DNA of 63,095 nt, counting the filler, from Hausera hauseri (lineage: Eukaryota), in NCBI GenBank assembly GCA_046269625.1. It is 9 parts of 9 records of this genome, joined end to end, with 100 filler letters (N's around TTAATTAATTAA, not from the genome) between each part and the next. Parts side by side here need not be neighbours in the genome. Positions count along the whole stretch, not along the records: positions 47,334 to 63,095 come from JBJURY010388811.1; 8 more parts are not named here. One strand, written 5' to 3'. The notes beneath the pieces are model-generated. The model saw only the letters and a program-made list of their open reading frames with translations. It did not search any database and was not told where the DNA came from. Shown in pieces: positions 26,974 through 63,095 of the stretch (positions within the stretch are counted from its first letter, which is position 1; each line of letters starts with the position of its first letter). Made by a program: the position numbers and the translations under genes.

Positions 26974-27042
26974 AATACGGGGTAAACCTTAAGAAAATGA
27001 AATAAACAATTTGCTACAATTAATTTTATTGATAATTTAATT

Positions 27043-28309: not shown

Positions 28310-28434
28310 TAAAGTGAAATCCCCTTATTCAACTATTTGTCAATCAAAGATATTTCTTAATATTTTATTCTCTAAATTGAAGTTCTTTTTGTTTTTCATA
28401 TTACTGTGCTCCTCACTCGGGGTACCAGTTTATA

Positions 28435-31069: not shown

Positions 31070-31398
31070 AAGGGGGAGGGGGTCCGCCCACGCATCACGT
31101 GATTGGTCACGTGATCCACCTACGCGTCACGTTATATCCGCCCACGCGTCACGTGATTGGTCACGCGATGCGTGCGAAAAGTCACGTGATATTGTCCAGA
31201 CATTTGTTATTCTCACATGACTTCGTTTATTCTCACGTGACATTGTCTAGACTCACACGTGACATTGTCTAGACTCACGTGACATTGTCTAGACTCACTT
31301 TACATTGTCTAGACATTTTTATATGCACCATTGTCAAGATATTTATTTGCACCATTTTGACATTGTCTAGACGCACTTTACATTATCTAGACATTTTT
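31070..31398. repeat. CACGTG/CCGCCC/ATTGG-rich repeat block with 20-bp tandem units
   Basis: tccgcccacgc(a/g)tcacgtgattggtcacg(t/c)gat at 31083 and 31137; about four copies of cacgtgacattgtctagact at 31234-31315, decaying towards the contig end. Confidence 0.85.
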
Positions 31399-40569: not shown

Positions 40570-41209
40570 ATGAGATTTGCTGTCAATCAGGAGAAACGCA
40601 ACAGTAGGCCCCGGTGGAAATGGTAAAACACACTGTAAACTATTACAAAACTACCGTGGCATATTCCATTCACCATTATTCAATCACATTTACTGGCATC
40701 AGGGTGCTGGTGGTGAGTCCGGTCTGACACCAGGAATTTTGTAAATTAAAATTGATAACATTAATAGATGGGTTTGATGAGAACTGGTTCGGGCGATTAC
40801 GCAACGAAGGCGTTATTGTCATTGATGATTTATTCCAGGAAGCCGCGAAACAAACTGACTTTAATAACCTGTTTATAAAGATTGCACGACACCGTGGTGT
40901 GACTGTTATTTTCATTACGCAAAACAGGTTCCATCAGGGAGGACAGCACTAAACACTAAATTTTACGTGCCCTATTTGGTACTGTTCAAAAATCCCCGTG
41001 GTCAGACTATCATAGATTATATTGCTCGACAAGCATTTCCTCACAACCGGACCTACTTAATCGAGGCCTATTATGATGCTACAATCACGTCACACGGATA
41101 TCTGTTCATTGACTTTACACCACAGTCTCCAGATGACATGCGTGTACAAACAGACATTTTCAATCCGAAAGGTGTGTATGTCTATAAACAAATTCGAAAA
41201 TCGACATGA
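40570..41209 (+). pseudogene. Polinton packaging ATPase (A32/FtsK-like)
   Basis: Walker A GPGGNGKT (40607), Walker B VIVIDD, ARHRGVTVIFITQN, YLVLFKNPR and HGYLFIDF. Confidence 0.9.
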
Positions 41210-41424
41210 CAGTACTGAAAAATGAAGAATTTCCCGAAAAACAATTGTTAAACGTGAACCTACGAAAAAGAAACGTGCATCAACAGCAGCATCAAAACGC
41301 AACGCTACAGTTAAGCAATTAATCAATTCAGTCCTTCGAACAACAGCAGTGAGACGCAAATTACCATCAAAGTGGCAACGATTATAAACAACTACGTCGA
41401 CGCATCAATATGCACTGATGAAAC

Positions 41425-41753
41425 ATGCGTATCGAATGTTGTCAACCGTACTTTATTGCTTTGCTTAAAGCCCTGTCGAGACATAAAGGAATCATGCTAC
41501 AATCATTACCGCAATTTCTAGTGGACGATTTAATGGAAATTTTGTACAATATTGTTGTTCGTCACGTTGACATTGGTAGTGGAAAGCGGAATTTACTAAA
41601 GTATCGAAAACGACTCATTACCTTGTCAACGCTCGTAGTAAATGACTGAAACGATAGGTCATGTACCAGCAAGACGGAGGATTCATTGGTGCAATTCTGC
41701 CTGTTGTCATGTCATTACTGGGTAGTATCATCGGTGGCAAAAGTTTAGTATAG
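41425..41753 (+). pseudogene. Small conserved Polinton protein with a C-terminal GGF-amphipathic tail (gasderminX-like in adintovirus nomenclature)
   Basis: LMEILYNIV..LLKYRKRL, then after a frameshift QQDGGFIGAILPVVMSLLGSII. Confidence 0.55.
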
Positions 41754-41899
41754 TATAAATAATGAATGTAAGTATATTATGTTTGGTAGTATTGGTGCAT
41801 AGTTTTCATCATTTTGTCCCATTTTACCGAATCTTACATTCACTTTGCGTTCAAATTGTTGCAATACAAACAAAAACCACACCGGCAACACCGACAACA

Positions 41900-42935
41900 A
41901 TGGACGTATGGTTCGGTCCACGTCATCCTGTTGGGTACACTGGAGTCACCAAAGTGGCAGAGATTATAGAAAAGAGTCGACGAAAAACCCGACAGTGCCT
42001 CGGGAAACAGTTAGCACACAGCCTGAAGAAAACAATAAAAAAACGGTTTCGAACTCGTGCATACTATGATCCACGCGTAAATAATCTACGGCAAATGGAT
42101 CTAATGGAAATGATTACATACGCTAACATTAACGATGGATATCTGTACGTGCTGACGTATATTAATGTGTTTAGTCGTTTTGCATGTGCAATTGCCGTCA
42201 AATCAAAACCCGGTAAAGAAATTGCCGACGCTGTTCATACATTAATAAAGCAACAACAACAACAACCACGAAAGCATGCAAAAACGGATTTAGGTAAAGA
42301 ATTCTACAACTCCAATGTTGCATCGGTCTTGAACCGGTTCGGTGTAAACCACTACTTTGTGTTTTCTCAATACAAGGCTGCACTCGTTGAACGATTTAAT
42401 CGACCCTGCGCAGTCGCCTAAACAAATTCTTTACTAAGCAAGACAATAAATGCTGAGTAGATATACTGCCGGATACTATCCATGCATACAATCATTTGAC
42501 ACATCATGGAATCAACAGATTACGGCCGGTTTGTGTAACCGGTGATTTGGACATGTGACTATATCCAAACCAAACACGACAAGCAACACTTAAACGTCCA
42601 AAATATAAAATTTGTGATTATGTACGTGTTTCAAACCTAAGTACAACGTCATTCATCAAAAATTTCAGAACTGGAGCGATAAAATTTTTCAAATTTTTGC
42701 AATCAACAGTATAAAATACCTGCCATGTATGTTTTGGATGATGAAACTGGTGAAAAAATACGTGGTAAATTTTACGAAAAGGAATTTGCTGATGCAGGTG
42801 CTGCCTGAGAAACCCGATGTGTATCCTATTCAGGAAATTCTGCGTTCACGCGGCAAAGGTTTGAATAAACAATATCTCGTCAAGTGGCATAGGTACACCA
42901 TACCGAATTGGATATTTACATCACAGATTGAATGA
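41900..42935 (+). pseudogene. Polinton retroviral-like (RVE) integrase with a C-terminal chromodomain
   Basis: QMDLMEM..NDGYLYVLTYINVFSRF, TDLGKEFYN, KAALVERFNR; chromodomain YPIQEILRSR..QYLVKWHRY..NWI. Confidence 0.92.
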
Positions 42936-43997
42936 GCGTTTACTTAGTACTTGACAGTAATAGAACATCACACCATGACAACAACAACAATAGCAATACG
43001 GCTGAACGGTTTATCATGTACTTGGACCAGGCATTAGATTTACGCTAGGGCGCGTGGGAAGCGGCTCTATCAGAATTTACATTTCAATTTTCACCGATAT
43101 CAATACGTGAGAACAGTGGTGTTTACTTTACTCTATTGGAGAAATCGCCTGCTTCAAGTCGTTTGCAGTTAATCCACGACTCTAAGCGAACATTTCATGT
43201 TCGCAATTATAAGCGGCAAAATTTCCCGATTTTTATTTTTTTATTTAAACAATCGTTTGTTTCTAAAACACAGATATCCGATTGAATTGCAATTTAAATC
43301 AATAGCCGATGCTCAGGCATTGGGTTTTCAATCCGCCAATGTGCGCTTGAAAGGTCCGAATCTAGGTGGACATGTCATAGCTAGTGAAAGAAAATTGAAC
43401 TTTTCCAAAAGCATGAAAACCGACATTATGGTAAACTCGCAAATGACAAAATGAACATTTTACTCGTATACTACGGCATACGGTTTACTGTTGGAATCGG
43501 AAACAGAATTGTGTGTATCCATCAGAGAAGTGGCTAAATTGACTCTGAAAACATTTAGATTAAACGCCGATGATCGTATTTCGTTTACATTACATGAAAA
43601 TATTATATATTTTGCCTTCGATGAACTAATGACACGGAATGTGAGCTTTACGAAACCTGAATCCGGTCAAACCGGCGGTGGTCGAGTTATTGTCGCTAAA
43701 TACAAGCCACGACTATATGGAGCATGTCAGCAAATCAACATTTTAACGGATCTGACCGAACTCATATTTGTTGGCGGAAAACGTAAACAACTATTGGTTT
43801 TTATTACACTGGATTCTGACACGTGCAAAACACCCGTCGAAACAGGTCATGTTAATATCATCCGGTTCATGTATTTATTGTTATCTCACAATGTTGTGCA
43901 CAGTATTTCGATGTATATACTAGATGAATTTTGGAAACCCATTAAATTTCTGTTCGGATCTACGACGCATTTGACGCTGCATTTTCGGCGTCAATAA
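42932..43997 (+). pseudogene. Polinton minor capsid (penton)-like protein, copy 1
   Basis: MSVYLVLDSN..NTAERF..LDL.*GAWEAALSEF; C-terminus ILTDLTELIFVGGKRKQLL..ILDEFWKPIKFLFGSTTHLTLHFRRQ. Confidence 0.8.
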
Positions 43998-44051
43998 TAA
44001 ACTGCGTTATCATCATCATCATTACAATCATCAGTGTGAATAAGTCTTTAC

Positions 44052-45060
44052 ATGGTGTTACCGAGTATTAGTTGCCTGACGACTCGACCGAACAATTCAG
44101 CCATTGTAGATTGGGAGAATCCGATAGATTTATCCGGACAGTGGGAGGTTGCACTGACGGAACTTAACTTTCCTTACGCACCTGTGACATTGAAAGGCAA
44201 TATGAAAATACATTACAGCACATCTCATCGGATCACGGCAAATGAACCATGTCAACTACTATTTGAAAATAATAAACTGTGGGCCAGAACCTCTTATATT
44301 GTTACGAGCGACTTTAATAAGAGCATAAAAGAAGACAAAATCCGTGTTATGCTAAAAGATGGAAAAGCACAGTTTTATTACAAAAGTAAAATTTACTGTC
44401 CACGTCAATTCCATTGAAGTGGCGAGAAATTCGGATTCAAAACTACAGAAATCCAAGCTAAAGCATCGTTGCTGATGATGCCATTGCACAAAATGCGTAC
44501 CTAGGAACATATGTGGACATTATTTCTAGTCGACAAAATATATCAACGGTGCATGATACATTGTGAATCTATTGTGAATCTGTAGCTGATCTCGTTCGGC
44601 ATTTTTAGCTAAAAAGTACCAATACATATTTAGAGCTTTAACGTCAGATACAAATGGCTACATCAAGGATGTGGTCAAAATTTCGTTGGGTAAATCTTTG
44701 ACCATGGTATTGGGTTTCGATAAACGGCAGTTTCAACCGAATAAGACACATGTTGCGACACTTAAACCAAAACTGGAAAATGGACTACATCAAATGTACA
44801 TTTACACGAACGTCACCGAACCGATTTTGGTCGGTGGAGTACGTGTACCGCTACTCCGTGCAATCTGTACGGAAAGGAACAGGTACACTGCTGGTGACAA
44901 TGTCATTGTCAAGCTCGATAATCCAATGTTCATATCCCTGGCATCTATATATATAAACAATATTGAAGTTAAGATCAAATGTGATGCAGGCTACTTTATT
45001 GAATTTCAGTACGGTACTACAACAACTCTAACGCTTCATTTATGTCGAAAATATGATTGA
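44052..45060 (+). pseudogene. Polinton minor capsid (penton)-like protein, copy 2
   Basis: MVLPS..PNN..PIDLSGQWEVALTELNFP; C-terminus MYIYTNVTEPILVGGVRVPLLR..IEFQYGTTTTLTLHLCRK. Confidence 0.85.
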
Positions 45061-45352
45061 TTCTCAAATCGTTTCCATTTCCAGTAAACCTCAGCATGGC
45101 GGTAAACTGCCGTATTTTGTCGGCAAAACTATGGTTCTGGGTGGTTGCGTGTTGAAAAGTATTGGAGCCATGGAAGCAAAAACAGCACAGGCTGTGCTAC
45201 AAGAAAACAAATCGATTTTACCATTGTTAAAGGAACACGCCTTGACCGAAATAAAGAGTGCTGCACCGGGAGTTGTTGAAACAGTCAAAAAACAATTCAA
45301 TGGCAATGGCTTGAAAAACAACGTAGAGCATCATAGAGCTTTTCAACTATAA
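45053..45352 (+). CDS. Small Polinton core-like protein between the minor and major capsid genes
   Basis: QHGGKLPYFVG motif, in the position typical of the conserved Polinton QxGG-LP-F protein. Confidence 0.5.
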   Translation: MIDSQIVSISSKPQHGGKLPYFVGKTMVLGGCVLKSIGAMEAKTAQAVLQENKSILPLLKEHALTEIKSAAPGVVETVKKQFNGNGLKNNVEHHRAFQL

Positions 45353-45380
45353 AGAAACGTCGTCGTATGATTTTATTGGA

Positions 45381-46540
45381 ATGGCATCTGCAAAATCTGA
45401 ATTAAGTAAATTTGACAAGGCCGCGCCACTAGTCGTTATTGGCAGTGCAGCATTTGAAAAAATCTATCCCGTTGATTCTGTTTCAATGGACGACAATATT
45501 GACATTCAATTACTCTACGGTTTGCGCTGCAACAGACACTGTAACACCGGCCAATTACCTTTTTCTCACTTTGTTCCAGCAGGCTTCACTGACTCTAAAC
45601 AATGTTAAAATTGAAGGCAACACCAGTCTATATAGTATCAAAGCTCTCGCTGAAACGGTGTCGAATTACATTACAGTGACGAAAACGTCTCATTTGACGA
45701 AAACCATCGGAAACAATGCTACAGCAGCAAATCGTCAGGCATGGATGGCAGAATCAAAAGCATTTACCATATGTGGACCGCTGTACTTTGACTTTTTCGA
45801 TCAGACAAAATACCTACTGCCTGGTGTTAAAGCCATGATTCAACTCAAACGCTGCGACAAGGTTTTCTGCTTGAAAGCTACAGTTGAAAATCTTAAGCCC
45901 ATAATGAAAATTACCGAGGCACGATTATACGTTCGTCGTTTAAAAGTAAAACCATCTGTGCTCATGTGACGTCGATTGGGTTTGGAAACGCAAAATGCCT
46001 GTTTTCCATTACAACAGACCGAACTCGTGTTTTACACCATACCCAAAGGTTCGACATCGTTCTATAAGGACGCGCTGTTTGGCGACATGCGATTGCCGAA
46101 ATTTGTGCATGTTACATTTCAAATGACTACTCAACAAACAGGCAGTTATACCACTGAGTCAGAAACGTTTACCCATAGCAATGTGAATGACATCAGTTTG
46201 GGCAAGAATGCAGATTTCATTGAGTCATCTGAGCAAAATTTCGAGACTGATAATAATGTTTGCACATATATGCAATCTATCGTGATAAAAATGGGTTTGC
46301 TGAACAAAAATATCAACAATGGAATATCTATGGATTTGTTCAAATCCGCCTATCCGTTCTTTACATTTGTCCTGGCTCCAGATTATGACGTTAAGCAGTC
46401 ACAACTACCTCAACAAGGAAATCTGAGGTTAGAGGTTCACATTTCGAAAGCGGTAGAAGAGTCTACCGTAATGTATATTACGGCGTATCTGATGCCGAGG
46501 TGAAAATAACGAAAAATAGAACCGTCATTGTACGAATAAA
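45381..46540 (+). pseudogene. Polinton major capsid protein (double jelly roll, PY)
   Basis: KSELSKF..EKIYP, PANYLFLTLFQQASLTLN, GPLYFDFFDQTKYLLPGV..LKR, EARLYVRR, RLPKFV and QQGNLRLEV; frameshifted, with a stop. Confidence 0.88.
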
Positions 46541-47333: not shown

Positions 47334-47598
47334 TCATATTTTCTGATAATTTCGCATAATCTCGAAATATGGTGTGTGGTCTTTGTTGATTAGAAATAGT
47401 TAAGATTAGATTTAACTTCAAATGAGGTGTTGGGGTTATTTGTGCCAATAAACATAGTTTATACATTGGTAATATACATCGGAATTTATTCTTAAATAAT
47501 GTAGTGCCCATTATGATTGTAAAAATATTGATAATTATAAGTAGAGCCTTCTCATGGCTCGTTGGAGTATACTTATTATTTTTTATTAATAAGGCATT

Positions 47599-50500
47599 TC
47601 ATGACCATATTGGATCCATTTGATTCTTTGGGTAATTCATTTGTGGAAGTGGCTGTCTAATATGATCGGTTGCTAATTTTCTTCCGGTCTCTGGGAATTT
47701 CACTGTCGATTGTACCAATACATTCGTCATACATAGCGCTAATATACGTGAAAATAATACCGCTTTACTGAGTTTTGGTTTCATGCCCTAATAGTTTATC
47801 GAAACAACTTTGATACTGCGTTGGTTATCCGGTTTGGTAGAATTTTCATTTGTAATGGGCTCTTGTTTTGGTGTGGGATTTGAAATATTTGGTTCAGTAG
47901 AGTTTTTATCTGTAGCAGATTCGTCTTTTGAGATGGACTTTGAAATGAGTTGACTTAGTTTACTAATATTTTTATCTATTTTTTATCAAGATTCCTTGTC
48001 TCTGACGGGACCTATAAATTTATTTTTCTCTTTCTTTAAATGTTGACTTATATCGGTAATTTGTTTATGTATTTTTGTTAGATATTTTAAACAAGGCATT
48101 GTAGTTACTGGAATTTCTTCCTCTGGCAGATCTATTAAATAATCTGTTAAATAACCTCCTTCGTTCTGTAACAGAACAACGTGGGTCAATCTTAAATAAG
48201 CGGTGATTCTGCTGGTCCATGTGATGTAAATTACTCCATTAGGGTTGGCTCAATATTTTTGAGCAAGTACATCTAATCTTGCATCATGTAACTGTACTGA
48301 TCGGTGGTAGATTTCTATGGTATTTAATTGTGTTATTCTAATTATTTTTTTGTCAGTTACTTTTATTCCTTTAGGTTGGTCTAGTTTCCTATTGAAACTA
48401 TGAAGGAGAATTTGGATCATATATTGTCTGATCTCTTCCGTATTGAAATCAGGTGCTAAGACAATGTTATTAATATGGAAATGATCTACCATTTGTCGTA
48501 ATAGATTTTGTTGTTCATATTCTTTAAGGTAATAAAAGTGATCCAATTAATCGTCCTTTCTGGTATATTATTATGGTTCAAACCTAGTTCCAATACAACT
48601 TAGTATATCCATCTGTTGATCTCTGGGGTTGGTTCTGATATCGTGTCTAGGCATTTACGCAGAAGTTTTGTCATAGAAACTTTTCTATCGGTAATTTTTG
48701 TTGACGGTAGTTGCATATTTTGTGATTTGTTTGTACAAAATTTTTAATTGGGATCTTCTTCTGTGATCATTCCTCTTTAGATTAAAATATCTGAATAATT
48801 ATCCGCACATCTTCTCATCATCTCATAGTAATGAAAATCATAATGTGACATGGGATTATAGCATCGGTATTTTTCCATGTCAAATAAATAATTTAGTGTA
48901 ACCTGTTTTTCTTTTGAGATTTCGAGGTTTTCTTCTTCTATACAATGGATAAACTTCCTTTGCCATTCTCTTTTTATAGTTTGTTCTCTTTCTAATTCAC
49001 TAAAATAATGTAGTACGTAAGGATCGTGTTTCGATGATTTATGAATTCGAGTTGGAGTTCTATTAAAGGTTAATGGAAAATCTTTGTTGACTTTATCCGA
49101 AGGTCGATTGAAACCTTTATTGTAGTCGCTATTTATCGTTTGTATCAACGTATTATAACGAGCACATCTCGAATAACCTTGAAATTCTAATTTATTGAAG
49201 TTTTGTTGAAGGCTATTAAACATGAATGCATTCGTACATATTGTTGAATGGTTGGTTTATATATTTTTACATGACGTAATAACCGGATAGTCCAAATTTT
49301 ATCTTTATATTCTTCTTTATTATAACCACGTCTCATGGCCCATCTAGTAATTTTCGTATCATAATACTTGCATATTCGTATTCTATAAATTGTCTCGAAG
49401 GATTGTCCTTTTTCGTAAATTTCTTTTCCCATTGGTAAATATGGGGTGACAATTTGGGTTGGTTCGGGCATTATGCACATACCTACTCTTTGCTCTCATC
49501 CATTCTCTGTCAAGGTGTATGATTCCTGATGCTATCTTATCTTCTAAGTATTAATCGTATAGCATTTCGACTTCATCTCGTAATTCTTCTAGCACTTTAA
49601 GCTTTAATTTTACCAACGTTTTGTAATATTCGGTTTTCTCGATTACATCTCTAAAGGGTTTTAACTAGTTCCTTTGTGAGGGATTCGTCTTCAATCCGGC
49701 TTCCCATAGTAACAGGTCTATCCATATGTGTTTTTTATACTCTTTTGGGTCATTTTTTACATTTTGCATTTTTCGCGTCCAAAGTCCGTTAATTACGTGG
49801 TCAGTGCCACAATCCTATACTAAGTCGTTGAGTATTTCCATGTCCTGTGTTGAAATTTCCGATTGTTTGGGTTTATGCAAAGCTATATTAAGCAGTTGGT
49901 AAACAAATGTATTCCACGTGGTAAATGATGTAAAAACGCCTGCATGTAAATTGAGAGGATTGGTTTTCATATACTGCTGAGCCTCTAAGGCGTAGGCATC
50001 GCCTTGTGCGAAGTATTGCCTATCAACGTTAAAAACGTTTGTTTTTAAATAGTGATAATCTGGAGATTGTCGTTTATCTGGGAATCTAGTAATTTCCCAT
50101 AAGAATAAACGCATTCAGGTCTGCCTATAACTCATTTCTATGTCTGGTACTATTGATATTTCTCTAGCTGGTTTTATTTTAGTGCTGTCGGTTTTCTGAT
50201 CTTGTATGTACTGTTGGCGAAGGGTGTGTATGATTTCATTTAGGTTTTGATGTGGATATTGTTCCTTTAGCGTAGTAATTTCTCGTTCAATGTTCAAATT
50301 TTGGTTTAATGGTTTGTTTAACCTTCGTAGAAAATACGTTATTTCATGTACTTCTATTGATCGGTCAACATCATTCTTCTTGTAGTGTTTAAATCTTTTT
50401 ATTATCGATGATATATTTCTGTATGATGAGTTATCCCAAGTGTTTCCTTTTGCTATTTCATTATTTCTTATTGCAGCGCATGATTTTAACAGTAATAATT

Positions 50501-50890
50501 TATCTTCTGCTGGCATTTCCTCCTAGGTTTTACCAAATTCCATTAGTATGGTGTCTATGACTGGTTTAAATGTATTGTTTCCCGAAATAATATATCGATC
50601 TATTGCTATTCGATTGAGTTCCATTTGAACTTCTTTGTTATCTATCCAAGGTAAGTAGTCGAATTCAATTCTTGGCCATGTACGAGTTTTAGCAGTTTCC
50701 TTTATTGGAACAGTCGATGGTTCCTTTAATGATTGTTGTGTACAAGAATTTTTTGACTATAGGTTCTAGGTTATTTCTACTTTGGGTATATTGTAGTTTT
50801 GAATGACCCTTGGGGCTAATATTGTAGGAATGGCGCCTAAAAACGCTTCTCTATTTGCTCGTTTTTTCTTTTCCCATGCTGTCTTTTGAA
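47599..50890 (-). pseudogene. Distal part of the 3' extension, unknown helical protein(s)
   Basis: ORF fragments 50115-50516, 49815-50114, 49187-49480, 48777-49223, 48250-48546, 47986-48189 and 47599-47784; no recognisable motif. Confidence 0.55.
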
Positions 50891-51868
50891 TCAAATTAAT
50901 TCTTTTAATTGCTCGACGACATATATTGCTAATACATGTGATATGAATTTCACATATTTTAAATAATCTTGTTTACTTGAACTGACTGGTTGTGCAGCAC
51001 AGTTTCCGATTAAACAGCATATTACCCGGGTAGATAGAAGTAATGGATTTAGTATACCGTAGTTTCCTTGGTCTTCTTCGTAATTAGGAGGAGGTAATTG
51101 TTTGGTTGTCCTTTGATAGTATCTTACTACTTTGCAACATATATAAAATGCTACTACTATTAATGCTACTACAGTGCTACTGGCTAAACCAATTATAAAC
51201 ATTAGCAATAAAAATGATTTGTAATCAACAACTGGTAAGGTAAGGATGACTGTATATTCATAATGGATTGCTTCAGTTGAAGTTACATTAAGTGCTGACA
51301 AGGCAATACGTATTGCTCTTCGTTTGTAAATGCATGGTGACTTGCCTGAAACATCTTCATACTTTGAAGGTGGTTTTTCATTTGCTGTTTCTACGTCCAG
51401 CATTAATTGCTCTCTTCTTACTTCTCTCCGTATTTTATAAGACCTTTTGATTAATATGGCGATATAACTAATTAATGCAAGGACGAATGATATTGGTAGC
51501 ATTAGTGATATTATGTCCATCGTTTGATTGTGTGCATATGCTTCTTTGTTGCATGTCCTGGCTTTAACTATGGGTATTAAGCTGCTTCCTTTCATAAATC
51601 CATTGATTGTTGGTAATATGTCTCGTCTAGTGAAATTGAATCGCTTATATCGCTTGACTTTCTTGTTGAAGAATATTATCCCTCCTATTATGAGACTAAC
51701 TAAGAGTGTCAATATTACTGCAGAAATAATGTATTCTAGTATGGATATTGAAGGGAATATTGGTTTGTTTGCTGGTACTGTTATGTTGGTAGTCGTTTTT
51801 GCGTTAGCTTTCTTAATTAGTAATGATGGTATAAGTATTGGTGCTGTTAGAGTAAAAGGTTTAGTCAT
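50891..51868 (-). CDS. Multi-pass segment with repeated signal-peptide/AxA/TM units and a PPxY motif
   Basis: ..LLIKKANA-KTT..TM-KK; ..IPIVKA-RT..TM-KR..PPSKYE; ..VTSTEA-IH..TM..PPPNYEE; ..LIGNCAA-QP.. Confidence 0.65.
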   Translation of the reverse strand: MTKPFTLTAPILIPSLLIKKANAKTTTNITVPANKPIFPSISILEYIISAVILTLLVSLIIGGIIFFNKKVKRYKRFNFTRRDILPTINGFMKGSSLIPIVKARTCNKEAYAHNQTMDIISLMLPISFVLALISYIAILIKRSYKIRREVRREQLMLDVETANEKPPSKYEDVSGKSPCIYKRRAIRIALSALNVTSTEAIHYEYTVILTLPVVDYKSFLLLMFIIGLASSTVVALIVVAFYICCKVVRYYQRTTKQLPPPNYEEDQGNYGILNPLLLSTRVICCLIGNCAAQPVSSSKQDYLKYVKFISHVLAIYVVEQLKELI

Positions 51869-51877
51869 AAATTTTAT

Positions 51878-53026
51878 CTAATCATTGATTCTGTCTCGTT
51901 CAATTGACTTTCTTTGCGCTATTATTCTTTTCCTTTCTAATTTAAAGTTTTCGGCTTTTTCATTTGGTATGAGTAGTAAACAAAAAATTAAACGGTATCG
52001 AATAGTATTTATTCGGCCAGATAATCCTTCTGCGTATACATTACAAAATGAGTATATATCTTGGTAATCCTGTTTAGAGAGTTCTTGATTTAATTTTCGT
52101 TTTAAATATTTATTCAATAAAATTTTAATTTCTTTTTCTTCTATCACTTGTAATGCTTCTTCATCGAGTTTGTCTTTTAACGCTATGATTGAATAAGCTG
52201 TGATATATTGTGTATAAATATCACCTTTACACTGTTGTCTTAGCTCTAATCCGAACCATTCATACAAGGTTAGATGGTAATTGATTACACTATACATTTC
52301 ATGGTCATCAACGTAATATTTTATGCCAGGTAATTCGTTTTTGATTTCTCTTTTAATGTGACTGACTGGCAAAGGGGCTCTATCACCTCGAAGAAATCTT
52401 GTCAAAAATGTCCGTTCAGCTTTACGTCCTATAAATAAGGGTTCATAGTCCATGCTTGATCCGATTATAAGTGACTCATCAGAATTAAAATCATGGCTTA
52501 TATTTAATAAGTCGACTGATCTTATTTTTTCCAACAATTGCGGTATAGTTGATAGTTGTAACTTATGCATAATTAACAGTTCGTGTTTTTTATTTCCAAA
52601 GTGTATAGATTTTATTCCGCATCTATAATTCCATGCCTTGGCTAATTCATGCATAGGGCTATACCATGAAAGCTTTAAACCAGATACATTCATAATTTTA
52701 TCAAATATTATTAATCCTGAGTTATAGTTGGTTCGTTCGTTTTCGTAACGTTGTCTAAATGATCTACCTTCGTGCAGTGTATCCTTAGAAAGTTGGCATT
52801 GGAAGCTGGTGATTAATAGTAAGTTATCTCTCACGAGATGAGTGGTAGGATTATATCTTGATTCTTTCTGGTATTGTTCGAAATATTTCTTGTACGTGTC
52901 GAGATATGAGGTTATAGGTTCTCTTCTAATGTGACTGGGTGTCTCCCATAAACGATTTGCGTATTGAATACTTTGATAGATAGTTGTGTTATTTCTTCGA
53001 CAGACTTGTATTCCATTCTGGTACAT
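51878..53026 (-). CDS. Unknown protein containing repeat-domain copy A
   Basis: 382-aa ORF; YEPLFIG..ERTFLTRFLRG..FGLEL..AYSIIALKDKL..KILLNKYL..GLSGRINTIRYRLIFC. Confidence 0.7.
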   Translation of the reverse strand: MYQNGIQVCRRNNTTIYQSIQYANRLWETPSHIRREPITSYLDTYKKYFEQYQKESRYNPTTHLVRDNLLLITSFQCQLSKDTLHEGRSFRQRYENERTNYNSGLIIFDKIMNVSGLKLSWYSPMHELAKAWNYRCGIKSIHFGNKKHELLIMHKLQLSTIPQLLEKIRSVDLLNISHDFNSDESLIIGSSMDYEPLFIGRKAERTFLTRFLRGDRAPLPVSHIKREIKNELPGIKYYVDDHEMYSVINYHLTLYEWFGLELRQQCKGDIYTQYITAYSIIALKDKLDEEALQVIEEKEIKILLNKYLKRKLNQELSKQDYQDIYSFCNVYAEGLSGRINTIRYRLIFCLLLIPNEKAENFKLERKRIIAQRKSIERDRIND

Positions 53027-53618
53027 TAATAGTGCAGCTCTTTTGGTTGAATCAGATTGTTTAATTTCCCTTTACAATTACAAATGAGTTACATAAGCTT
53101 GTCTGAGATCGTTAATCATCATCCTTTTGTCGGGGTTTTGTTCGAGTATTGCTACTGGGTTTCTGTTGTTTAATGGTAATTTGGCCAAACGGTTGGCTAC
53201 TGTATATAGCTCATATTCTTCAGTTGATAATTCATGACGGTCTTTGCGAAGCTTGTTTATGTCGCGAAGTATTGAAATTATTTTGTTGGTAGTTAAATAT
53301 GGATGTTCGGCTATTGATCCTACTCCTTGTTCTATCAATGTTATGATTATTTGCGTTTCCTCTGAGAGTACGTCAAATGGGGAATAAATTTTTTCCTTTG
53401 TGTAATTAATAATTTTTTCATTCTGTGATATTAGCTGTATATAATGGCGATTTAGCCTGGGCTCCTTCGCATAAGTCTCTAAGTTTAGTTGGACTGGGCT
53501 ATCTAATTTTAACCATTCTGTTGTTTAATCAAAATTCTTAATAAAGATTTGACTTTCTAGTTTATCTTCTTGTAGTCTTTTTCTTTCATAACGCTCTACT
53601 TGTTGAGATAGTGATAAG

Positions 53619-55359
53619 TGTGATGCCCACCGCGGCCGGTGCCCTTCGGCCCATTTTGGTTGGGCAAGGCCGGGCGTCCGATATAGCCGCGTCCGATCCA
53701 TAGTCGGGCCCGATCTTCCGCCTCGAGAATTTCGCCCGCTGAACTTTCAAGCGATATTCAAAATATTTTATTTTCAGTTATTTAATGCCACCGATTTGTT
53801 TGTTTGGTTAGAAATGGAACATTACTTCCAATGATTTCGTGTTTATTTCCATATTTGAAAGTCCCACGTACTCTGGGATAGTTTTGTTGTTAATAGCTTA
53901 TCCTACACCGAATTATGTTTGGCCTACATGCAACGTATCGTCGGTTGCTTTGATTTGCCAAATCACATCATTCTCGGTTTTCTTCCAAAATGTCTTTCTG
54001 TCAGTTGCATTAGTTGTATGTAGCAGTCCTGGCACTATTATGGACGACCGTAAACGATCTGCTGTTCTGTGCACTATTTACGTTAAATTGACATTTCATC
54101 CGACTGAATTCAATTTTTGTCATAAAGAATTAGTGCTCGTCAAACAAATGCACATCCATTCAATTATCAAATACGACAAACGACAAAAACAAAAATGTTG
54201 ATACATACCGAACACAACTAGAAAAGAAACTGCATAAAAATGCTTTCACCGATGCCGTTACTTTCGTTGAAGCAAAACCGGAGTCAAACGTCTCTATTTA
54301 GCTGCCTGATTAATTGCTTTTAATATTCTATATCTCATGGTTGGATACCATGCAGCATTTCTTGCTATTTTCATTGGTTTTGTTTACCCGTCTTATTGTA
54401 GTGCCAAAGCAATTGAAACAAAAGACGGTGCCACAAAACGGCTGACGTATTGGGTTGTTTACGCTACGTTCAGTCTTATAAAATTCTTTACGGACATTTT
54501 CCTGTTTTGGATTCCGTTTTATGCCTTATTGAAATGTATATTCCTTATTTATTGCATGGCAACAACAAATTGGAACGGTTCAGTTGCAATTTACTATGGA
54601 ATCATTCGACCGTTCATTCTTAGTCATGAAAAGAAAATTGATTCGGAAATTTCACACACTGCACGAGTCGTTGCAGATTCTGCTGAAGAAGCCTAGAGAT
54701 CATCCAACGAGTACAAAACGGAATAATCAAATATAGTGTTCTATTTATTTACAAACAGATAATAATGTAATAAACGGACAAAATTTTGACTCCCACTTGT
54801 CCAATTTTGTGTTCTAACGCTTGTTATTTTTTGATTATTTAAAATTAGTTTGTACTTGAATTACTTAACATTTATTGTTTTGATTTATCGTAATAAAGTC
54901 TGGCTTTACATCCAAACTATATATGTGGTCTGTAATTTCATTTAATCACCGTGTATTCCCTTTTAAGCTGCATGTGTGTATGATTATTAGAAGGTCATTG
55001 GCAAAAAAGAAAAAATTAAATTATGGAGTTTGCTTTTCAATTTAAATCTTATTTCTCCATTTTAAAAAAAATTTGTTTTCAAAGTTCATTGTGTGATCAT
55101 ATTTCGATTGTTACCAGGATCTTACGTATTCGACTCATTACGTGCCAAGTTAAAAAATAACGGAAATTTTGGATTATTTATTCTGTTATCAAATTCTACT
55201 AATCCCAATATTTTTAGTGATTGAATTCAAAATAAAAAGGACGGTTCTAATCGCGACAAATTTGTTCGGAGCTAGGTTATACACCTAATTTACTTTTCGT
55301 GGAGAAAAGAACAAGGCAACATCTGGATTTCGCTTATTCAATTAATATTATAAATAACA
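53619..55359. mobile_element. 1741-bp TGT...ACA insertion (solo-LTR-like) with 5-bp TSD ATAAG
   Basis: ATAAG at 53614-53618 and 55360-55364. Excision restores the open minus-strand frame ..QNTVPNPY|LSLSQQVERYERK.. Confidence 0.75.
54190..54696 (+). pseudogene. REEP5: Intronless REEP5/DP1/Yop1 (TB2/DP1-HVA22 family) copy
   Basis: LEKKLH.KNAFTD..GVKRLYL..IGFVYPSYCSAKAIETK..LTYWVVYATFS..LFWIPFYALLKCIFLIYCMA..NGS..IY..IIRPF; frameshifts and a stop in the N-terminus. Confidence 0.88.
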
Positions 55360-56119
55360 ATAAGTATGGGTTTGGTACGGTGTTTTGGGATTCACTTCAC
55401 CCTATTCGCCTGAAGCAATATTCGCTCGTGGGATGAATATTTTCTTTATTTCTCTCGGGTAATAGAGACTTATTAATTGATATTTCTTTTATCGTTGCCA
55501 ATGTTTGACGTTTCATATATTTCAGTTTGATAGTTGGAACTTATGTTATGGTATGTCCTTCAGTTAGGATAATCTCTTCGTCCTTACTACTATTTGATTG
55601 TTTAAATTTCTTCATGAGAAACATTAAATTTACTAGGATCAGTAATAATAACCATATAGATGAGATTTCTTGCTTAGTACCAATTGTCGTAAATGCGGCT
55701 TCAGCCGTTCCGAATAATATGAATGGTATAAAAAGTAATATTAATGTTGAGTAAGTAAACCCGTTAATAATTTTGCCAGAGTGACTTTCGTCTAGCGTTA
55801 ATAGGATGTCCGTATTACTTTCCTTGTTGATATATGAATCCTTCTGCTATATTTGCTGTGTTATGTTGATAGTTTCAGATTTATCCTGATTGATATTACT
55901 ATTGTCCATTGTCTGGTTTTTATGATTGTTGGTTTCCGTTACTACAAATGGGTTATGATCGTCATTTCTTTTTATGTCGTTACAGTTATTATCGCTATGT
56001 AGTGTATCTTCTTGTTCTTCCAATTTGGATAATTCTTCGTTACAGTGTATGGGTAGTATGTGTTTCTCAAAGGTATTCAATCGTCGTATATTTTTTGTCA
56101 ATTGTGGTGCCGTTTCTTT

Positions 56120-57631
56120 TTCATTATCTGGTTTTAGTCGGCAGACATTTATTAACCTTTCCGTTCTTCTTTAAATGGTTTATCTATTTCTTTGTCGTCG
56201 TTTAATTCGCAAAATATTAGATTGTAGCGTATGTCATTTAATTTGCCTGAAAATCCACTTGCATTCACGATGTCGAATTTATCTACATCTTCGTAATCAG
56301 AAGGGGTCAGTGGTGTTTTTTCTTCTCAATTCAGATAATTATTCCATAATATTCGTGCTTCTTCTTCATAAGCATCTATTTCATCCTGAGTAAGTTCGTC
56401 TTTTATCGCCATAAGTGTGTATGTCAACCAACAATTGATCATAAAGGAGTCTGTTTGGACCTTATTTATTAACTCTTCGCCGTAATTTTTAAATAGTCCC
56501 AGACATCTATCGACCAGTTTGGCAATTTTTTTTTGGAAGTTTATTTGCTATTAGTTCAGGGAAATTCTTTAAAGGAGATTCATTAAATACGCTGCGGGAA
56601 ATAATAATGGTATTCCTTTTAAGAAGCTAGTAATCAGCACACGTTCTCTACGGCTTCCGACGAATAAAGGTTGATATTTAGTTTTGTCTCCATACACTAT
56701 GCTTTCTTCGTGGGTTAGTCGGTATTTTTCTATTAATGGGTCGAACGACCAAAGGCAACGTATTATTTGTAATGTAGATTGGGTCTCTAGTCGAGTTTTT
56801 AACAGTGATTCATGTTTTGGACATATGGGTTTGTTGATTGGTGTCCCCATTACATCATCCCAAGTTTCTATCATTATATTGGTAGGTTGTAACCATATGG
56901 GTTGTAGGGATATTTCCATTAAAATTTGTTGAAGCAAGTAAAATCCCTCGTAGTATACCTTAGTTCGAAAATCATTCGATGTGTAGGGTAATGACGTATT
57001 GGTTGAAATTTTATAAGACGTATACAGGATGCTAGCTATCTGTAGCAATTGGTATTTATAATCCGATTCTTTAAAGTTTATTCCTGTTTCTTGTTTTATC
57101 CGATCGAAATATGGTTCATATAGGACTATATAATTTTATGAAGTCTTTCTGTTCCTCGTTGGGTAATTAATCTATACTACCTCCTAACAATAGACAATTA
57201 ATAATGTCTCTGTCCCATTCATGGGGAGTCTCTCCGAATATACAAAGTGTGGTAGTATGCTGGTCATCGTGAAGCATGGTGACGGGTTGGTCATCTTTTG
57301 GTTCGATGTCGTTTAGCCATTGTTCGGTTCCATTTGCTATAGGGTGTAACTTTATTGTGGTGTTCAAAATATATCGGTCGTGCGGATATATTTCCATTGA
57401 ATGGGTGACGAGATGCCGTATTGGTTGATATACTAACCTATGTATTACTCGGTCTAATTCCTCTATGACTGACGAGAGACTGCTTGGATTTGTTCTTAGA
57501 GTGTTTATTACCCTAGAGTAAGGAATTATCTCGTTGGCCATGGCATAATTGTAGTCACGTAGAGGATCTATTATGTTTGCTACGGTTGCTAGAATTGTGC
57601 TAGTTTCGGGTGTCATCATTACTGACGTCAT
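56120..57631 (-). pseudogene. Unknown protein containing repeat-domain copy B
   Basis: YQPLFVG..ERVLITSFLKG, then after a frameshift RCLGLFKNYGEEL..NCWLTYTLMAIKDEL..EARILWNNYL..GFSGKLNDIRYNLIFC. Confidence 0.7.
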
Positions 57632-58135
57632 GTTAAGATCCTCTTGTATTGTTTCTGTTTAATCTGATCCAAGTAATTGTCCAGTTCTATATGGTTTATA
57701 TTCGCTTCCGCTCTTGTTTAGTCCATCCATGGCGTCTTGTATGGGTTTATGTAATTATTTCCATTCTTTAGTATTAGTATAGTCTTTTGGAATATCTCTT
57801 TGGGACAGTAATATTTTTGTTTCTTTGTAGGGGGTTGATGTTTTAATTCGATATTTCTTCTATCTTTGTATTGATTTGGATATGATACCCTCTTTTCTTT
57901 ATGAGAGGAACAGTCGTGATGTACTTTTCCTTTCTGATATTCTCTTACTATTTGTATTAGACTAAAATAATTGTCATCATGTTTTACTTGTTGGTGATAT
58001 GGTTCTTCAAATGATTGTCCGTCGAGTGAAGAGTTCGGCTAGACCTTTTTGGTTACATGACCTAATATTCCATTTGTCAGTTATGTGTGTCCTATTAGGT
58101 GTCTTTGAATATTTAACATGGCGGAAGCTATATAC

Positions 58136-59883
58136 TAGGGCGAGTTGTATTTATGTTCCAAAATGGTTTTGATATAAATTAGATCTTTACGTTCTATCTT
58201 GAAAAGTTCTGCTATCTCTTGATCGTCGTCCAACATGCAAATTAGTAGTCTGTAACGCAGAGAATTTAGATTACCAGACAATCCTCCGACGTTTACTTGT
58301 TCCAATCGACTAATTCTTTTGTTATCTTTTCTAGTTAAAAGAGTGTCTCTATCTCTACGTAGATAGTCATTTTATAGTATTCGGGCTTCTTCCTTTTCCA
58401 TCTCCTCTATTTCTTCTTCTCTTAGTTCGTCCTTTAAAGTCATTAGCGTATATGTTAACCAACAATTGACTGTAAACGAATTCTTTATTTTCTGGTTTAT
58501 TAATTCTCCGCCAAAATTCTTGAATAGTCCGATGCATCTTACTCCTGCTTCATCGGCTCTTTTTTGGGATATATAGGCATCGCATAATGGGGATGTCTCT
58601 TGCAATAAGGTAAGTATACTTACAATAGGGATTTATGATATCTCTTATCTTAATAAATGAGTAAAAAAGATTCGTTGTTGTGGGCTTTCAATAAATAGGG
58701 TTTTATACCTCATTACATCTCCGTCAAGGGAACAATTCAATGTCAATGTCTTCTTAATGTAAGCATTTTTATCATCGCACGTCAGCCCGCTATTTTTCCA
58801 GTTCCAATCAAAAGTATGGACGCGATGTATCAATTCTGATAAGGTGTGTGTGCTGTGGTTTAGATTTGACATTAATTGTGTTTCGCAGATTTCCTTTAGA
58901 GTCTGTGCTAATTCTCGATAGTCTGAGTGTTCTTCTGTCGGTTGGTTAATGTAAAGGGATTCCAGTGATTTTCCTGCATTATTTTCGGGGAATTCGTTTG
59001 TTATGCAATCTGAGATGTTAAGTGTTTTAGGTTCTCTTTTATTGGGATGTCCATTCCAACTAAATGTTGGGATGCGTATTATCTTCCAGGATCCATTTGT
59101 TTTATCTTTATCACTAAAGAATTTACCTAACATTAGCAACGAGAGTAACCACAATAATACTGAGGTCCATGTGGGACTCAGGTGTTGTGATGTAGTCTCA
59201 GCTGCGTTTGCTATATTGATCATAAATAGAAAACATATTCCCATGAAAAGTAACGTTCCCAATGGGAACGTAGAATAACCCTTTATTCCTGAAGATTCTC
59301 GTTTTTTATCCTTTTCTTGAAGGGGTTGGATATGCATGGCTCTTGTCTCGTTAGAGATTTTATCCATATATTTAATTCTGTTTCCTGCAAATTGTAGTTA
59401 ATCAATTTTCATCTACTGTTTTGGAGGGAGATAGCTATCTAAGGGTTGTTCCATTTTTCTATTCCAAGCTCGTTTTACTTCTTCTACTTCATTAATGATT
59501 TCTCGACCTCCTATATTTAGATTATGGTGTTTATAAATTTTTAACACCCGGCTGGCTGCCACATAATAATGGTGTTGTGATTTTCTTGTACTGGCTAAGT
59601 CGGGAATTGTATAATATACCTCTTCACAACTTATGTTTATTAGAAGTTTATCCAGTGGGGACAATGTATTGGAATCCAATTTCGGATCTTCGCAAATTAG
59701 TTTCATTACGGGCCTATATTGTTCGTCTGTTATCCCGCACTTTTCGTGATATTTACCGAGAAAATCGCTTAATTCCATTACACTATTTATGGGTCTCTTG
59801 ACTAGTTGCAGTGCGTGATTAATAGGCTCTGAATTGGCTAGCAGAAAATTTTCCAATCGGTGTCGGTTTGCAGCCTCTCTCAT
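58136..59883 (-). pseudogene. Unknown protein: TM pair plus repeat-domain copy C
   Basis: One frame with isolated stops: ..MINIANA-AETT..TM..YKTLFIE..QRIFFTHLLR*..RCIGLFKNFGGEL..NCWLTYTLMTLKDEL..EARIL*NDYL..GLSGNLNSLRYRLLIC. Confidence 0.7.
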
Positions 59884-60572
59884 TAAAGGGAGTGGTGGTA
59901 GATTTTTCCCTTTTGTTGAGGTAATTCGAGGTAATTTTGTTCAAATAATTTGACTTTTTTGCATTGTACTCGCCCACCGCGGTCCGATCTCATTGTTCTA
60001 ATTTTGTTATTTATTAGTGGTTTATTGATTTCATCAGGCTGGTATTTTTTAATTTTTTCTTTTAGGAGTCTAATATTTTCTTCTGCCTCTTGTAATTTTT
60101 CATTTATAGTGCTATAACGTGCAGGTGTTTGGAATTTATTTGTGATTTGCAATTCTATCAAGTCGGGATAAATGGAAGTTGTTGATACTGGTCTTGGTAA
60201 GTCTTGTAAAGAATTTCGTAATGGTTTCTTCGGAATACTCGTTATGATAGATACTGAATAGGTGGCCATTTTGGTTATTGAGGGTAAGGGCACTTGTCTT
60301 CTTCTATGGTCATTCGAAGAGAGATTAACTGCTTCCTCCTCGTCGCTTGTCATATTACTTTGAAACACATAATATACATATATCAACAATAGTACAACTG
60401 CACTACTCCAAGAGTTAGTCGTGGTAGTGACTGAGGTTGGTTGGGCGTTCGCGCATCCAAATATAATGAGTAATATTAAGGTTATCAAGGTTATGGTAGA
60501 CAAATTAAAAGGATTTCCGAAGATGATTGTGGGGGTATTGGTTGAAGGTGTTTCTATTATTCGAATTTGCAT
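59883..60572 (-). CDS. Signal-peptide/TM pair followed by a coiled coil
   Basis: FNLSTITLITLILLIIFGCANA-QPTS..SSAVVLLLIYVYYVFQSN..EEE, then INEKLQEAEENIRLLKEKIKK. Confidence 0.6.
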   Translation of the reverse strand: MQIRIIETPSTNTPTIIFGNPFNLSTITLITLILLIIFGCANAQPTSVTTTTNSWSSAVVLLLIYVYYVFQSNMTSDEEEAVNLSSNDHRRRQVPLPSITKMATYSVSIITSIPKKPLRNSLQDLPRPVSTTSIYPDLIELQITNKFQTPARYSTINEKLQEAEENIRLLKEKIKKYQPDEINKPLINNKIRTMRSDRGGRVQCKKVKLFEQNYLELPQQKGKIYHHSL

Positions 60573-60602: not shown

Positions 60603-61100
60603 CTATTCAGTCGTTTGCTTTAATGTAACATAATATAATGAGGGTGGAACAGTCTCTTCCCCTGGTGCGAACCACCACTGATCATTAGTCTGAGGATTTG
60701 TATCTTGGTATCCTTCGCAATTGAATACAATTGATCTTCCAATGACTTTGAGTACTGCTCCTATCAGTTTGGGTAGTACATCTAAACCAATAATAAGATC
60801 AGAATACGACTCTTGTGGGTTGGCGTAGCAAGTAACATCAATATATCCTATGGTTAAATCTAATTTTCCGCACGCATCGGGTATATAATGAGTAATTCGT
60901 CTATATAATCGTAAATTTATGCGGGTCAATGTGGTAGTGATATCGAGTTCCGCATTAACATACTTACCGTATACTTTGACTAATATTGGTGTTAAGAGAG
61001 GGTAATCGTTATAGCTTTGAAGATAATGCATATTATATAATAATTCTAACCCTTTTATTTCGTCATCTAATTCGTTTACGTTTTTCGGTACTTCTCCCAA
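60603..61100 (-). CDS. Degenerate retropepsin-like domain 2
   Basis: ILVKVYGKYVNAELDITTTLTRI (cf. ALLDTGA)..GKLDLTIG..SDLIIGLDVL. Confidence 0.6.
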   Translation of the reverse strand: MGEVPKNVNELDDEIKGLELLYNMHYLQSYNDYPLLTPILVKVYGKYVNAELDITTTLTRINLRLYRRITHYIPDACGKLDLTIGYIDVTCYANPQESYSDLIIGLDVLPKLIGAVLKVIGRSIVFNCEGYQDTNPQTNDQWWFAPGEETVPPSLYYVTLKQTTE

Positions 61101-61109
61101 TCTTTCTTT

Positions 61110-61470
61110 TTTTCCAGTGAGTTTGTAGCTACGTCTATCACGATATCATAATATATTGGCGTATCTCTACCTATGATACAAGGGATTGTAGTATTTTGTA
61201 GTATGTGATACAGGATCTTTGATCGTTTACTTTTCAATTTAGTTAGGCAGTGACTACGCCTATTACTTTTAAATGGTTTCCGTTTATTAGCTTGTGATTT
61301 ATTTCGCTGCTTTCGATTAGTTTCAATTTCAGAGTTTCCATCGTAGTTTTGTTTAAATAATTTTTTGCGGTTCCTTTATCTACTCTTGCTTCTATTTCAC
61401 CTTTATTTATGGTTATCGTTGTGGTTACAGTATTATTTGATCCACCGCCTATGAATGTAATCGTCGTATT
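61110..61470 (-). pseudogene. Retropepsin-like domain 1, directly after the integrase (not in the ORF track)
   Basis: ITINKGEIEARVDKGTAKNYL..INGNHLKVIG; after a frameshift YHILQNTTIPCIIGRD..DIVIDVATNSL. Confidence 0.7.
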
Positions 61471-62614
61471 CTTGTCTTAAACTGCATTCTGCTCCTTAAT
61501 GGGTATTTACACGATGGTGTTTGTTCCAATTTACATTCTTTGGATGTTGGTCTACATCGTTGCGCACTTATCCAAGAAGTTTTATTAGGGTTGGATAGAT
61601 TCTGTAGTTCTAAACTTGATTCAGTTATTTGTAGTATTTTGTATGGTCCTTTGTAAGGTAATTTTAGTTTAGGGCTTTTGCCTGGTTTACAGGTCTCATC
61701 CAATATGTTGACTAGATCTCCAATTCGATATATATATATATGGGGTTTTGCCTTTTTATCATATTGATGTTTATAATTTCTTGGTGGTATTTAATTTTTA
61801 ATCCGGCTCTGATCCATGCTTCTTGTAATCTTTCTTGTAGAATTGTTACATAATCCGGTTTCTCCATCATTTGTGATTGTGGCTGTCTATATTTTAAATC
61901 AATTGGCACAATATCTCGTCTACCATACAGTAAAAAGAATGGTAATTCTCAAGTTGTTGTATGGAGACTTTGTCGGTAGGCATATACACAAGTTTTTATA
62001 TACAAATCCCAATCAGCTGGATGGTCATATGGGTAGCTAGATATCATAATTGAAAATTGTTTATTAAAGGCTTCCACTGGGCCATTGGCTTGAGTATAAG
62101 GTGAGATAAGTTTGTGATTAACTCCTAATATTGTTAGTACTTTTTCCATAAGTTCGCTGCAAAAGGTGCTTCCTCTATTGGATATCACTGTCATTGGCAC
62201 TTAATATTCAAATATTACGTCATCGACTAATCTTCTGGGCATAAAATCCGTGGTTCGATTTACTATTGGCATTACTATTGGAAATTTTGAGTGGTAATCT
62301 ATTGCTGTAAGTACACATGTATTTCCTCTGGCGGTGGTTGGTAATGGACCCACTATGTCAACACCTATACAAACAAATGGTGATGCTAAAACTGATACCG
62401 GTTTTAGTGGTGTTTTTCTTGCTTGGATATTTCCTCTTCTTTGTGAACATACGTGACAATTTTTACACCAATCATTCACGACATCTGCTATCTTTGGCCA
62501 ATAATACTTTTGCTTAAGTCTGCCTAGTGTAGCTTTATAACCTCGGTGTCCGCCGAGTTGTCCGTCATGGTAGTGTAGTAAAAGTTTTATGCGAATGTGT
62601 TTTGGTACAACCAT
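61449..62614 (-). pseudogene. Gypsy-type integrase (H2C2, core, GPY/F)
   Basis: HDGQLGGHRG..YYWP..CHVC; PFVCIGVDIVGPLP..IDYHSKF; SNRGSTF; QANGPVEAFN; KLKLPYKGPY; YPLRSR. Confidence 0.93.
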
Positions 62615-63095
62615 GAGTAAATCTTAGCTCTCTTCATAGTAGATATTTCCTCTATCCATTTTATATTTATTTTTGCTCCCTTATTTATTTTGGCTATTAT
62701 GAATTTTCCAAATTTCTTTGTCCTTTGCTTGTTCTTTGGCTATAGCTTCGTGCGTAATTGGTATTGTCAGGACTGTGTGCATCTCTTCGCTGACCTCCGC
62801 ATTATCTACTTCATCTATCATAGCTTGAATTAGGTCAGTCATTTTGTAATATTCGTATAGAATGTCTTCAACGAACGGATCTTTGTGGTCACTTTGTTTT
62901 GTGTTTCTTTGGTTATCTTTGTTCAATGTTTGAATAATTATACTTATTAACTGATCTGTATCCGTAGTGTGCTTTTTTCGTATTGTCTTAGGTACGTCCG
63001 GATTAAGTTTCTGTGAATAATATTCTTTTAAGTCGTGCATGTCATCGTATTCGGGATTAACTCAGTCATTATAGTTTTTGTCAATGTCATTTTCT

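Follow-up and report, generated by a model that had tools for sequence, protein, structure and literature searches.

We analysed a window of 63,095 nucleotides from Hausera hauseri (assembly GCA_046269625.1), in which short contigs are joined by N spacers; all positions count along this window. The host is AT-rich and, judging from the TB2/DP1, BIR and RING pieces and from the retroelements present, probably an invertebrate animal. The features described here lie within its last contig (47334-63095), where a Ty3/gypsy-type integrase is followed by a long coding region that a preliminary description had noted for repeated signal-like modules. We found eight such modules, M1 to M8, each composed of a hydrophobic segment, a small-X-Ala/Ser site, a loop of 10-53 residues, a membrane helix and a tail, and interleaved with three copies of a domain that we called D. 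Encoded on the same strand as the integrase and contiguous with it, this region is the accessory part of a decayed, multi-copy gypsy-like retroelement. On balance, we favour its reading as an accessory polyprotein processed by signal peptidase in the manner of flaviviruses, for which we infer cleavage, topology, the number of frames and function. The features of the contig, in the direction of coding, are as follows.

61452-63094, minus strand: Ty3/gypsy-type integrase with H2C2 zinc finger, rve core and GPY tail, broken by stops and with one frame switch.
61079-61476, minus strand: retropepsin-like domain 1, in two frames (sub-threshold Pfam matches, motif pattern by eye).
60672-61100, minus strand: retropepsin-like domain 2 (ESM Atlas).
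60363-60509, minus strand: M1, with hydrophobic segment, 12-residue Ser/Thr loop, short second helix, acidic tail and coiled-coil-like stretch; site GCANA (60444-60458), candidate cut after 60444.
59416-59880, minus strand: domain of no known family behind M1, with nothing above the Pfam cut-off.
59125-59268, minus strand: M2, with 11-residue loop and short second helix; site NIANA (59203-59217), candidate cut after 59203.
58159-58746, minus strand: copy 1 of domain D, represented only by its C-terminal third (in tblastn 44% identical to copy 2, 33% to copy 3; profile search).
56158-57796, minus strand: domain D copy 2, full length, in two frames (tblastn, profile search).
55613-55765, minus strand: M3, paralog of M1, with 10-residue loop and helix; site GTAEA (55697-55711), candidate cut after 55697.
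53619-55359, no strand assigned: nested insertion of 1741 bp with TG...CA ends and a 5-bp target duplication.
51881-53539, minus strand: domain D copy 3, the best preserved, about 550 residues, 44-46% identical to the homolog P0011.
51668-51868, minus strand: M4, with 22-residue loop bearing a sequon, 22-residue helix and a tail with 8 Lys/Arg in 15 residues; site KKANA (51800-51814), candidate cut after 51800, Met 23 codons earlier.
51359-51595, minus strand: M5, with weak signal, 15-residue loop bearing a sequon, 22-residue helix and 7 Lys/Arg in 15 residues; site IVKA (51560-51571), candidate cut after 51560; PPSKY in the tail (51359-51373), not a PPxY motif.
51080-51320, minus strand: M6, with 18-residue loop, 25-residue helix and basic amphipathic tail; site STEA (51269-51280), candidate cut after 51269; PPxY motif PPPNY in the tail (51080-51094).
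50915-51050, minus strand: M7, with 15-residue loop and a helix shortened by a frame break in this copy; site NCAA (50993-51004), candidate cut after 50993.
47790-50890, minus strand: further coding sequence of no assigned family, about 1000 codons in several frames, one low-stop frame at a time.
About 47494-47787, minus strand: M8, outside the stretch first described, with signal-like segment, 53-residue loop and helix; candidate cut after 47707, coding on to the contig end at 47335.

The integrase matched the Pfam families Integrase_H2C2 (E 1.2e-18) and rve (E 5.4e-08), and its best match in the PDB was the Gag-Pol protein of Ty3-G (E 1.7e-09). With a GPY motif read off the sequence, it combines the H2C2 finger, rve core and GPY/F tail that define Ty3/gypsy (Metaviridae) elements. 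The contig stops upstream of the integrase, which leaves the reverse transcriptase, RNase H, gag and 5' long terminal repeat (LTR) outside the window, and both ends of the element, with LTRs and target duplication, lie beyond the contig; the assignment to gypsy therefore rests on the integrase. From 63095 to 47335, a single minus-strand frame is low in stops at any point, except within 53619-55359, and no gap follows the integrase. The extra coding sequence downstream of it spans at least 12 kb (nested insertion excluded), or at least 4000 codons, and continues to the contig end. The path with the fewest stops nevertheless switches frame 12 times and meets 42 in-frame stops over its 4668 codons, and hence this copy is decayed. 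Nothing above cut-off was found in Pfam or PHROG for the coding sequence at 47790-50890, and an Rfam scan of the contig was blank.

Copies of the element were compared using the contigs of one sequencing run, X1, which possibly represents the source sample and in which depth does not equate to copy number. X1 was the one run listed as containing the stretch, and the listing showed no RNA data set with it. In total, 25,153 X1 contigs were placed on the stretch at ≥80% identity, and because 10,834 of these are below 90%, the element is a diverged multi-copy family. Depth amounts to 6,000-38,000 at the integrase end and to about 170-3,800 over most of the extra region, with 9,000 in one bin; no X1 contig covers the whole stretch. 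A search for related loci in viral and metagenome contigs returned none. Four of the ten frame-changing length differences listed between copies coincide with frame switches in this copy (7.9% of the sequence, P 0.006), so that at least some of the frame breaks result from decay.

All seven motifs of the preliminary description are present on the minus strand at the places claimed; M8 had been overlooked. The proposed layout of internal signal, cut site and membrane helix is supported by a shuffle test, by the homolog P0011 and by purifying selection among copies. For the shuffle test we used the unbroken 328-codon frame shared by M4-M7 (50894-51877), in which the four downstream helices were fixed, the rest was shuffled and a site was required 8-32 residues upstream. 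A strict site (h-region ≥1.9, Ala at -1) precedes three of the four helices, a count attained by 0 of 400 shuffles (null mean 0.09); the 1.9 cut-off was picked after the data were seen. Without a hydrophobicity cut-off, all four helices have a site, compared with 1.27 expected (P 0.0075); both figures bear on clustering, not on cleavage. By a cruder rule (h-region and small -3/-1 residues ahead of a stop-transfer helix), seven of the eight modules pass and M5 fails. The expectation of a membrane helix after each site had to be qualified, as the second helices of M1 and M2 have no 19-residue window ≥1.6 and that of M7 is cut by the frame break. Likewise, loops rich in Ser/Thr are a property of M1-M3 (30-58%) but not of M5-M7 (13-20%). 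The first segments of M4-M7 have no 19-residue window ≥1.6, and by eye they are too short or too polar to span a membrane.

The paralogy of M1 and M3 was borne out (41% identity over 66 residues, E 0.001); their score was reached by 0 of 1000 plain shuffles and by 3 of 1000 that kept the layout. M2 is a weaker, borderline relative of the two (33 and 69 of 1000 shuffles). M4-M7 were considered as mutual paralogs and rejected, their scores not exceeding those of shuffles, and a search with their frame gave no homolog among 3514 candidates at E≤1. P0011 consists of an unbroken 622-residue frame, in which 140 residues are followed by an M3-like module, with small residues kept at -3/-1, and then by domain D. 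Its module is closer to M3 than M1 is (0 of 1000 shuffles reach the score), and the small-X-Ala site is in the same register across M1, M2, M3 and P0011. In this copy alone, the nested insertion parts M3 from D copy 3, while X1 contigs of other copies join across it. Since P0011 has both in one frame and these contigs join, M3 belongs with D copy 3.

The three D copies are mutually 27-44% identical. Searches with D copy 3 yielded one homolog among 2586 candidates, none among 3688 longer proteins and one among 1.84 billion representatives, P0011 being the sole relative. Domain D had nothing above cut-off in Pfam, PHROG or PDB. PHROG searches were blank for seven of eight proteins, and those with P0011 gave two marginal matches of unknown function. 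The predicted fold of domain D has a pLDDT (predicted local distance difference test) of 39; its recognition in the ESM Atlas is low (1692), and the matches, being mixed, were not used. A profile search for a fourth D copy behind M7 found none.

We then considered where translation of the modules might start. No Met occurs within 45 codons of the cut in M6 or within 70 in M7, both of which lie in the unbroken frame, and M3 has none back to the preceding stop; the signals of these three modules are therefore internal. A stop lies within about 65 codons upstream of five of the eight modules, which is not above background (P 0.25). M4 and M8 may open separate frames with ordinary N-terminal signals.

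Such separate frames are part of an alternative in which only M4, M8 and perhaps M1 carry N-terminal signals, and the paired hydrophobic segments stay uncut, as helical hairpins or multi-spanning anchors that hold long cytosolic domains at membranes or lipid droplets. We regard it as possible, if on the unlikely side. The first segments of M1-M3 are indeed strongly hydrophobic over 15-19 residues, their loops have 10-14 residues and their second helices are short, and a stop and then a Met come directly ahead of M4 and M8. Moreover, LTR elements typically have their extra open reading frames (ORFs) as units of their own, which are spliced (PMC5408684). However, uncut hairpins do not readily explain the constant register of the small-X-Ala site in M1, M2, M3 and the homolog, nor the first segments of M6 and M7, which are too short for a membrane span and yet enriched over the null.

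Several observations weigh against signal-peptidase processing. The sites were called by a crude, permissive rule of our own, and the small-residue rule by itself gives 29 sites in 10 proteins, of which only 10 are followed by a helix and 2 fall within the integrase. The IVKA motif of M5, claimed as a signal-like site, is in place, but its h-region is poor (0.89) and fails the h-region test; in M4, two lysines directly precede the site. M1 and M2 would also be compatible with an uncut hairpin, since in both the stronger helix is formed by the first segment and the second helix is short. M4 and M8 each start at a Met a few codons past an in-frame stop, and 8 of the 12 frame switches coincide with no length difference among those listed. 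Finally, the candidate cut sites are at thinly covered edges of the copy comparison, and the reading draws on only one homolog, P0011, and one run, X1, possibly the source itself.

The copy comparison also provided evidence of selection. For the M6-M7 stretch (50985-51290), 40 of 49 differences in run X1 are listed, and 19 of these 40 are silent compared with 10.9 expected (P 0.002); the counts in the other two frames are 9 and 10. This stretch is under purifying selection among copies. Counted by hand, 17 of the 26 listed differences at <70% of depth are silent, as opposed to 2 of the 14 at >70% of depth, where this copy is the odd one. The pattern fits selection while the family spread, with neutral decay later.

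The M6 tail carries PPPNY, as had been described, and its PPNY is the sole PPxY or LPxY motif in any coding frame of the contig. PPSKY, put forward as a second motif of the WW-binding type, does not fit the PPxY pattern. The proposed recruitment of Nedd4-family proteins or of ESCRT (endosomal sorting complex required for transport) machinery can thus draw on one motif, not two. The two longest intervals in which no difference is listed cover part of the M6 helix (25 nt) and PPPNYE (17 nt). Among the 40 of 49 differences listed, none falls in PPPNYE, but 6% of 15-nt windows are equally empty, and conservation of PPPNY between copies is suggestive only.

The small units M4-M6 invite another interpretation, namely that they are cell-cell fusogens similar to the FAST and sORF2 proteins, freed by signal peptidase rather than myristoylated and serving envelope-free spread. 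We consider this quite unlikely. These units combine loops of 15-22 residues with one strong helix, followed within 15 residues by 8 Lys/Arg in M4 and 7 in M5, and more weakly by 4 in M6, and their tails are amphipathic (moment 0.58-0.80, values for which there was no null). These features match the hallmarks of MDG1 sORF2, and some sORF2 lie downstream of pol (PMC11952523). M4-M6, however, have no N-terminal myristoylation motif, they are embedded in the 328-codon frame behind signal-like segments instead of forming free-standing ORFs, and their loops are shorter than the reported ~30 residues. Basic tails follow most type-I helices according to the positive-inside rule, which also counts against fusogens. 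The Cys-Cys behind the M6 helix is not common to most copies (82% differ); an FAST-type dicysteine at M6 was rejected, most copies being without it.

A classical env of F-type, gB-type or retroviral kind was rejected as well, as there is no large ectodomain between a signal and a C-terminal anchor. The preliminary description was right in this respect as far as tested, with loops of 10-53 residues and no Pfam env match in the region.

Two retropepsin-like folds stand in tandem behind the integrase (60672-61476, minus strand), a position unusual for a gypsy-like element. The Pfam matches of domain 1, gag-asp_proteas (E 0.045) and Asp_protease_2 (E 0.051), are both under cut-off. Domain 2 has no Pfam match and its single-sequence fold has a pLDDT of only 34; in the ESM Atlas it scored 0.93 (recognition 2819), and its 10 best family-bearing matches all belong to one retroviral aspartyl protease family or clan. 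The DTG/DSG catalytic triad is absent from both domains in this copy. The two folds could form a single-chain pseudo-dimer.

These protease folds bear on the possibility that the extra region, a segment of viral or host origin, was captured separately and just lies beside the integrase, with modules that have no role in the cycle of the element. Capture could account for the much higher depth at the integrase end than over most of the extra region, for the lack of a contig spanning the stretch and for domain D, which has no known relative apart from P0011. We nevertheless consider it very unlikely, given that the region follows the integrase on the same strand with neither a gap nor a terminal repeat, that retroviral-type protease folds adjoin the integrase, and that the region itself is multi-copy and under selection.

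Processing by signal peptidase is well established for flavivirus and bunyavirus polyproteins. In the mechanism that we favour here, the region behind the integrase would be translated into a single long polyprotein or a few of them, and each internal signal would reopen the translocon of the endoplasmic reticulum after a cytosolic stretch. Cleavage by host signal peptidase would follow the small-X-Ala site, the loop of 10-50 residues would be luminal, and transfer would end at the next helix. Each predicted product is a type-I membrane protein that comprises a tiny loop outside, a part in the cytosol and, at its end, the remnant of the next signal. M1-M3 and M7 would serve as membrane anchors for large cytosolic domains, including the repeated domain D, whereas M4-M6 would be proteins of ~90 residues with basic tails, and the PPxY motif of M6 may bind Nedd4-type WW domains. 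The products were first thought to be small, but on this topology long cytosolic parts are expected in five of the eight. Their probable role is to bring particle assembly or traffic to membranes, or to steer host membrane traffic.

A bolder form of this proposal, which we hold to be unlikely, has the pol frame extended by 4000+ codons to encode two pseudo-protease folds and then a cassette cut into at least eight membrane proteins, including an ESCRT adaptor with the PPxY motif and FAST-like fusogens that are arranged in tandem and not myristoylated. If true, it would imply envelope-free budding or cell-to-cell spread, as well as a new orphan domain family.

Additional observations concern the structure of this copy. 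The nested insertion contains an intronless, 5'-truncated copy of TB2/DP1 (REEP5-like) at 54319-54693 on the plus strand (Pfam TB2_DP1_HVA22, E 5e-22). Its ends are of high depth and its core is of low depth (17.7). The insertion has the appearance either of a retrocopy with LTR-element sequence on both sides, as in LTR-mediated retroposition (PMC5131818), or of one that sits within a solo LTR. Over 56297-58363, one X1 contig (depth 6) links D copy 1 to the matching place in D copy 2, a hint that element copies differ in how many times D is repeated. The sequences at 59428-59721 (after M1) and 50280-50573 (after M7), both on the minus strand, show a weak reciprocal likeness in phmmer (independent E values 0.11-0.18), which is a lead only; judging from this, the domains that follow M1 and M7 are possibly a second repeated domain.

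Elsewhere in the window, another contig encodes a BIR domain and a double RING finger in adjoining intronless frames (26106-27471, minus strand), which may be part of a mobile element or virus-like insert. At 40868-46500 (plus strand), decayed frames with integrase-like and capsid/ATPase-like pieces resemble, by eye, a Polinton or adintovirus. Remnants of gag and protease from other LTR elements are found at 20300-22084 (plus strand) and 31778-32398 (minus strand), with Pfam aspartyl protease matches at E 4e-3 and 4e-6. At 28434-30211, inverted repeats of 144-146 nt lie nested within one another; with 83-91% complementarity, they are similar to a miniature inverted-repeat transposable element or a foldback element. 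Short tandem arrays are present at 31083-31398 and 5970-6130 (units of 20-22 nt and 55 nt).

Among known systems, the polyproteins of flavi-, hepaci- and bunyaviruses alternate internal signals and stop-transfer helices, with small residues at -3/-1, and release large luminal glycoproteins. The region described here has no sequence homology to them, and it differs in its luminal parts of only 10-53 residues, its mostly cytosolic bulk and its retroelement carrier. If the cuts are real, a retrotransposon borrows this trick of RNA viruses, using host signal peptidase to obtain a suite of accessory membrane proteins. No such layout was described in the titles and abstract openings of the literature searched, which included few subscription papers and not Repbase.

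Among retroelements, the giant planarian gypsy-like element Burro/GYPSM1 likewise has a very large coding region with many extra domains, and its accessory ORFs are possible polyprotein subdomains (PMC6431247). Its extras (MATH, BIR, BCL2, SUMO-like, ankyrin and an env-like region) lie between gag and pol, whereas here they lie behind the integrase. None of these domains was matched in our region, and the accessible part of that report describes Burro without repeated modules of signal and helix (PMC6431247).

The MDG1-group sORF2 and reovirus FAST proteins are also small, with a single helix, a short outer part, a polybasic juxtamembrane patch and an amphipathic tail (PMC11952523). sORF2 is one free-standing ORF of 63-107 residues, mostly with an N-myristoylation motif, in contrast to the three tandem units in one frame behind signal-like segments, and without that motif, found here. 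The authors of that study name the restriction to myristoylated sORF2 as a limit of their own screen (PMC11952523); if the cuts proposed here are real, the search for envelope-free spread widens beyond such proteins.

Finally, errantivirus ORF3/env and the LTR elements of rotifers likewise carry signal and transmembrane segments in extra coding sequence behind pol, which consists of one ectodomain or of a single ORF of 200-600 residues (PMC13524379, PMC5408684). Unlike these, the present region comprises at least 4000 codons with internal domain repeats, two protease-like folds and no F-type or gB-type ectodomain. A hydrophobic stretch is usually what earns the extra regions of LTR elements the label 'env-like'. 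The present region is organized otherwise: in a high-copy family, selection has kept numerous membrane modules with tiny loops together with a repeated domain that is an orphan.

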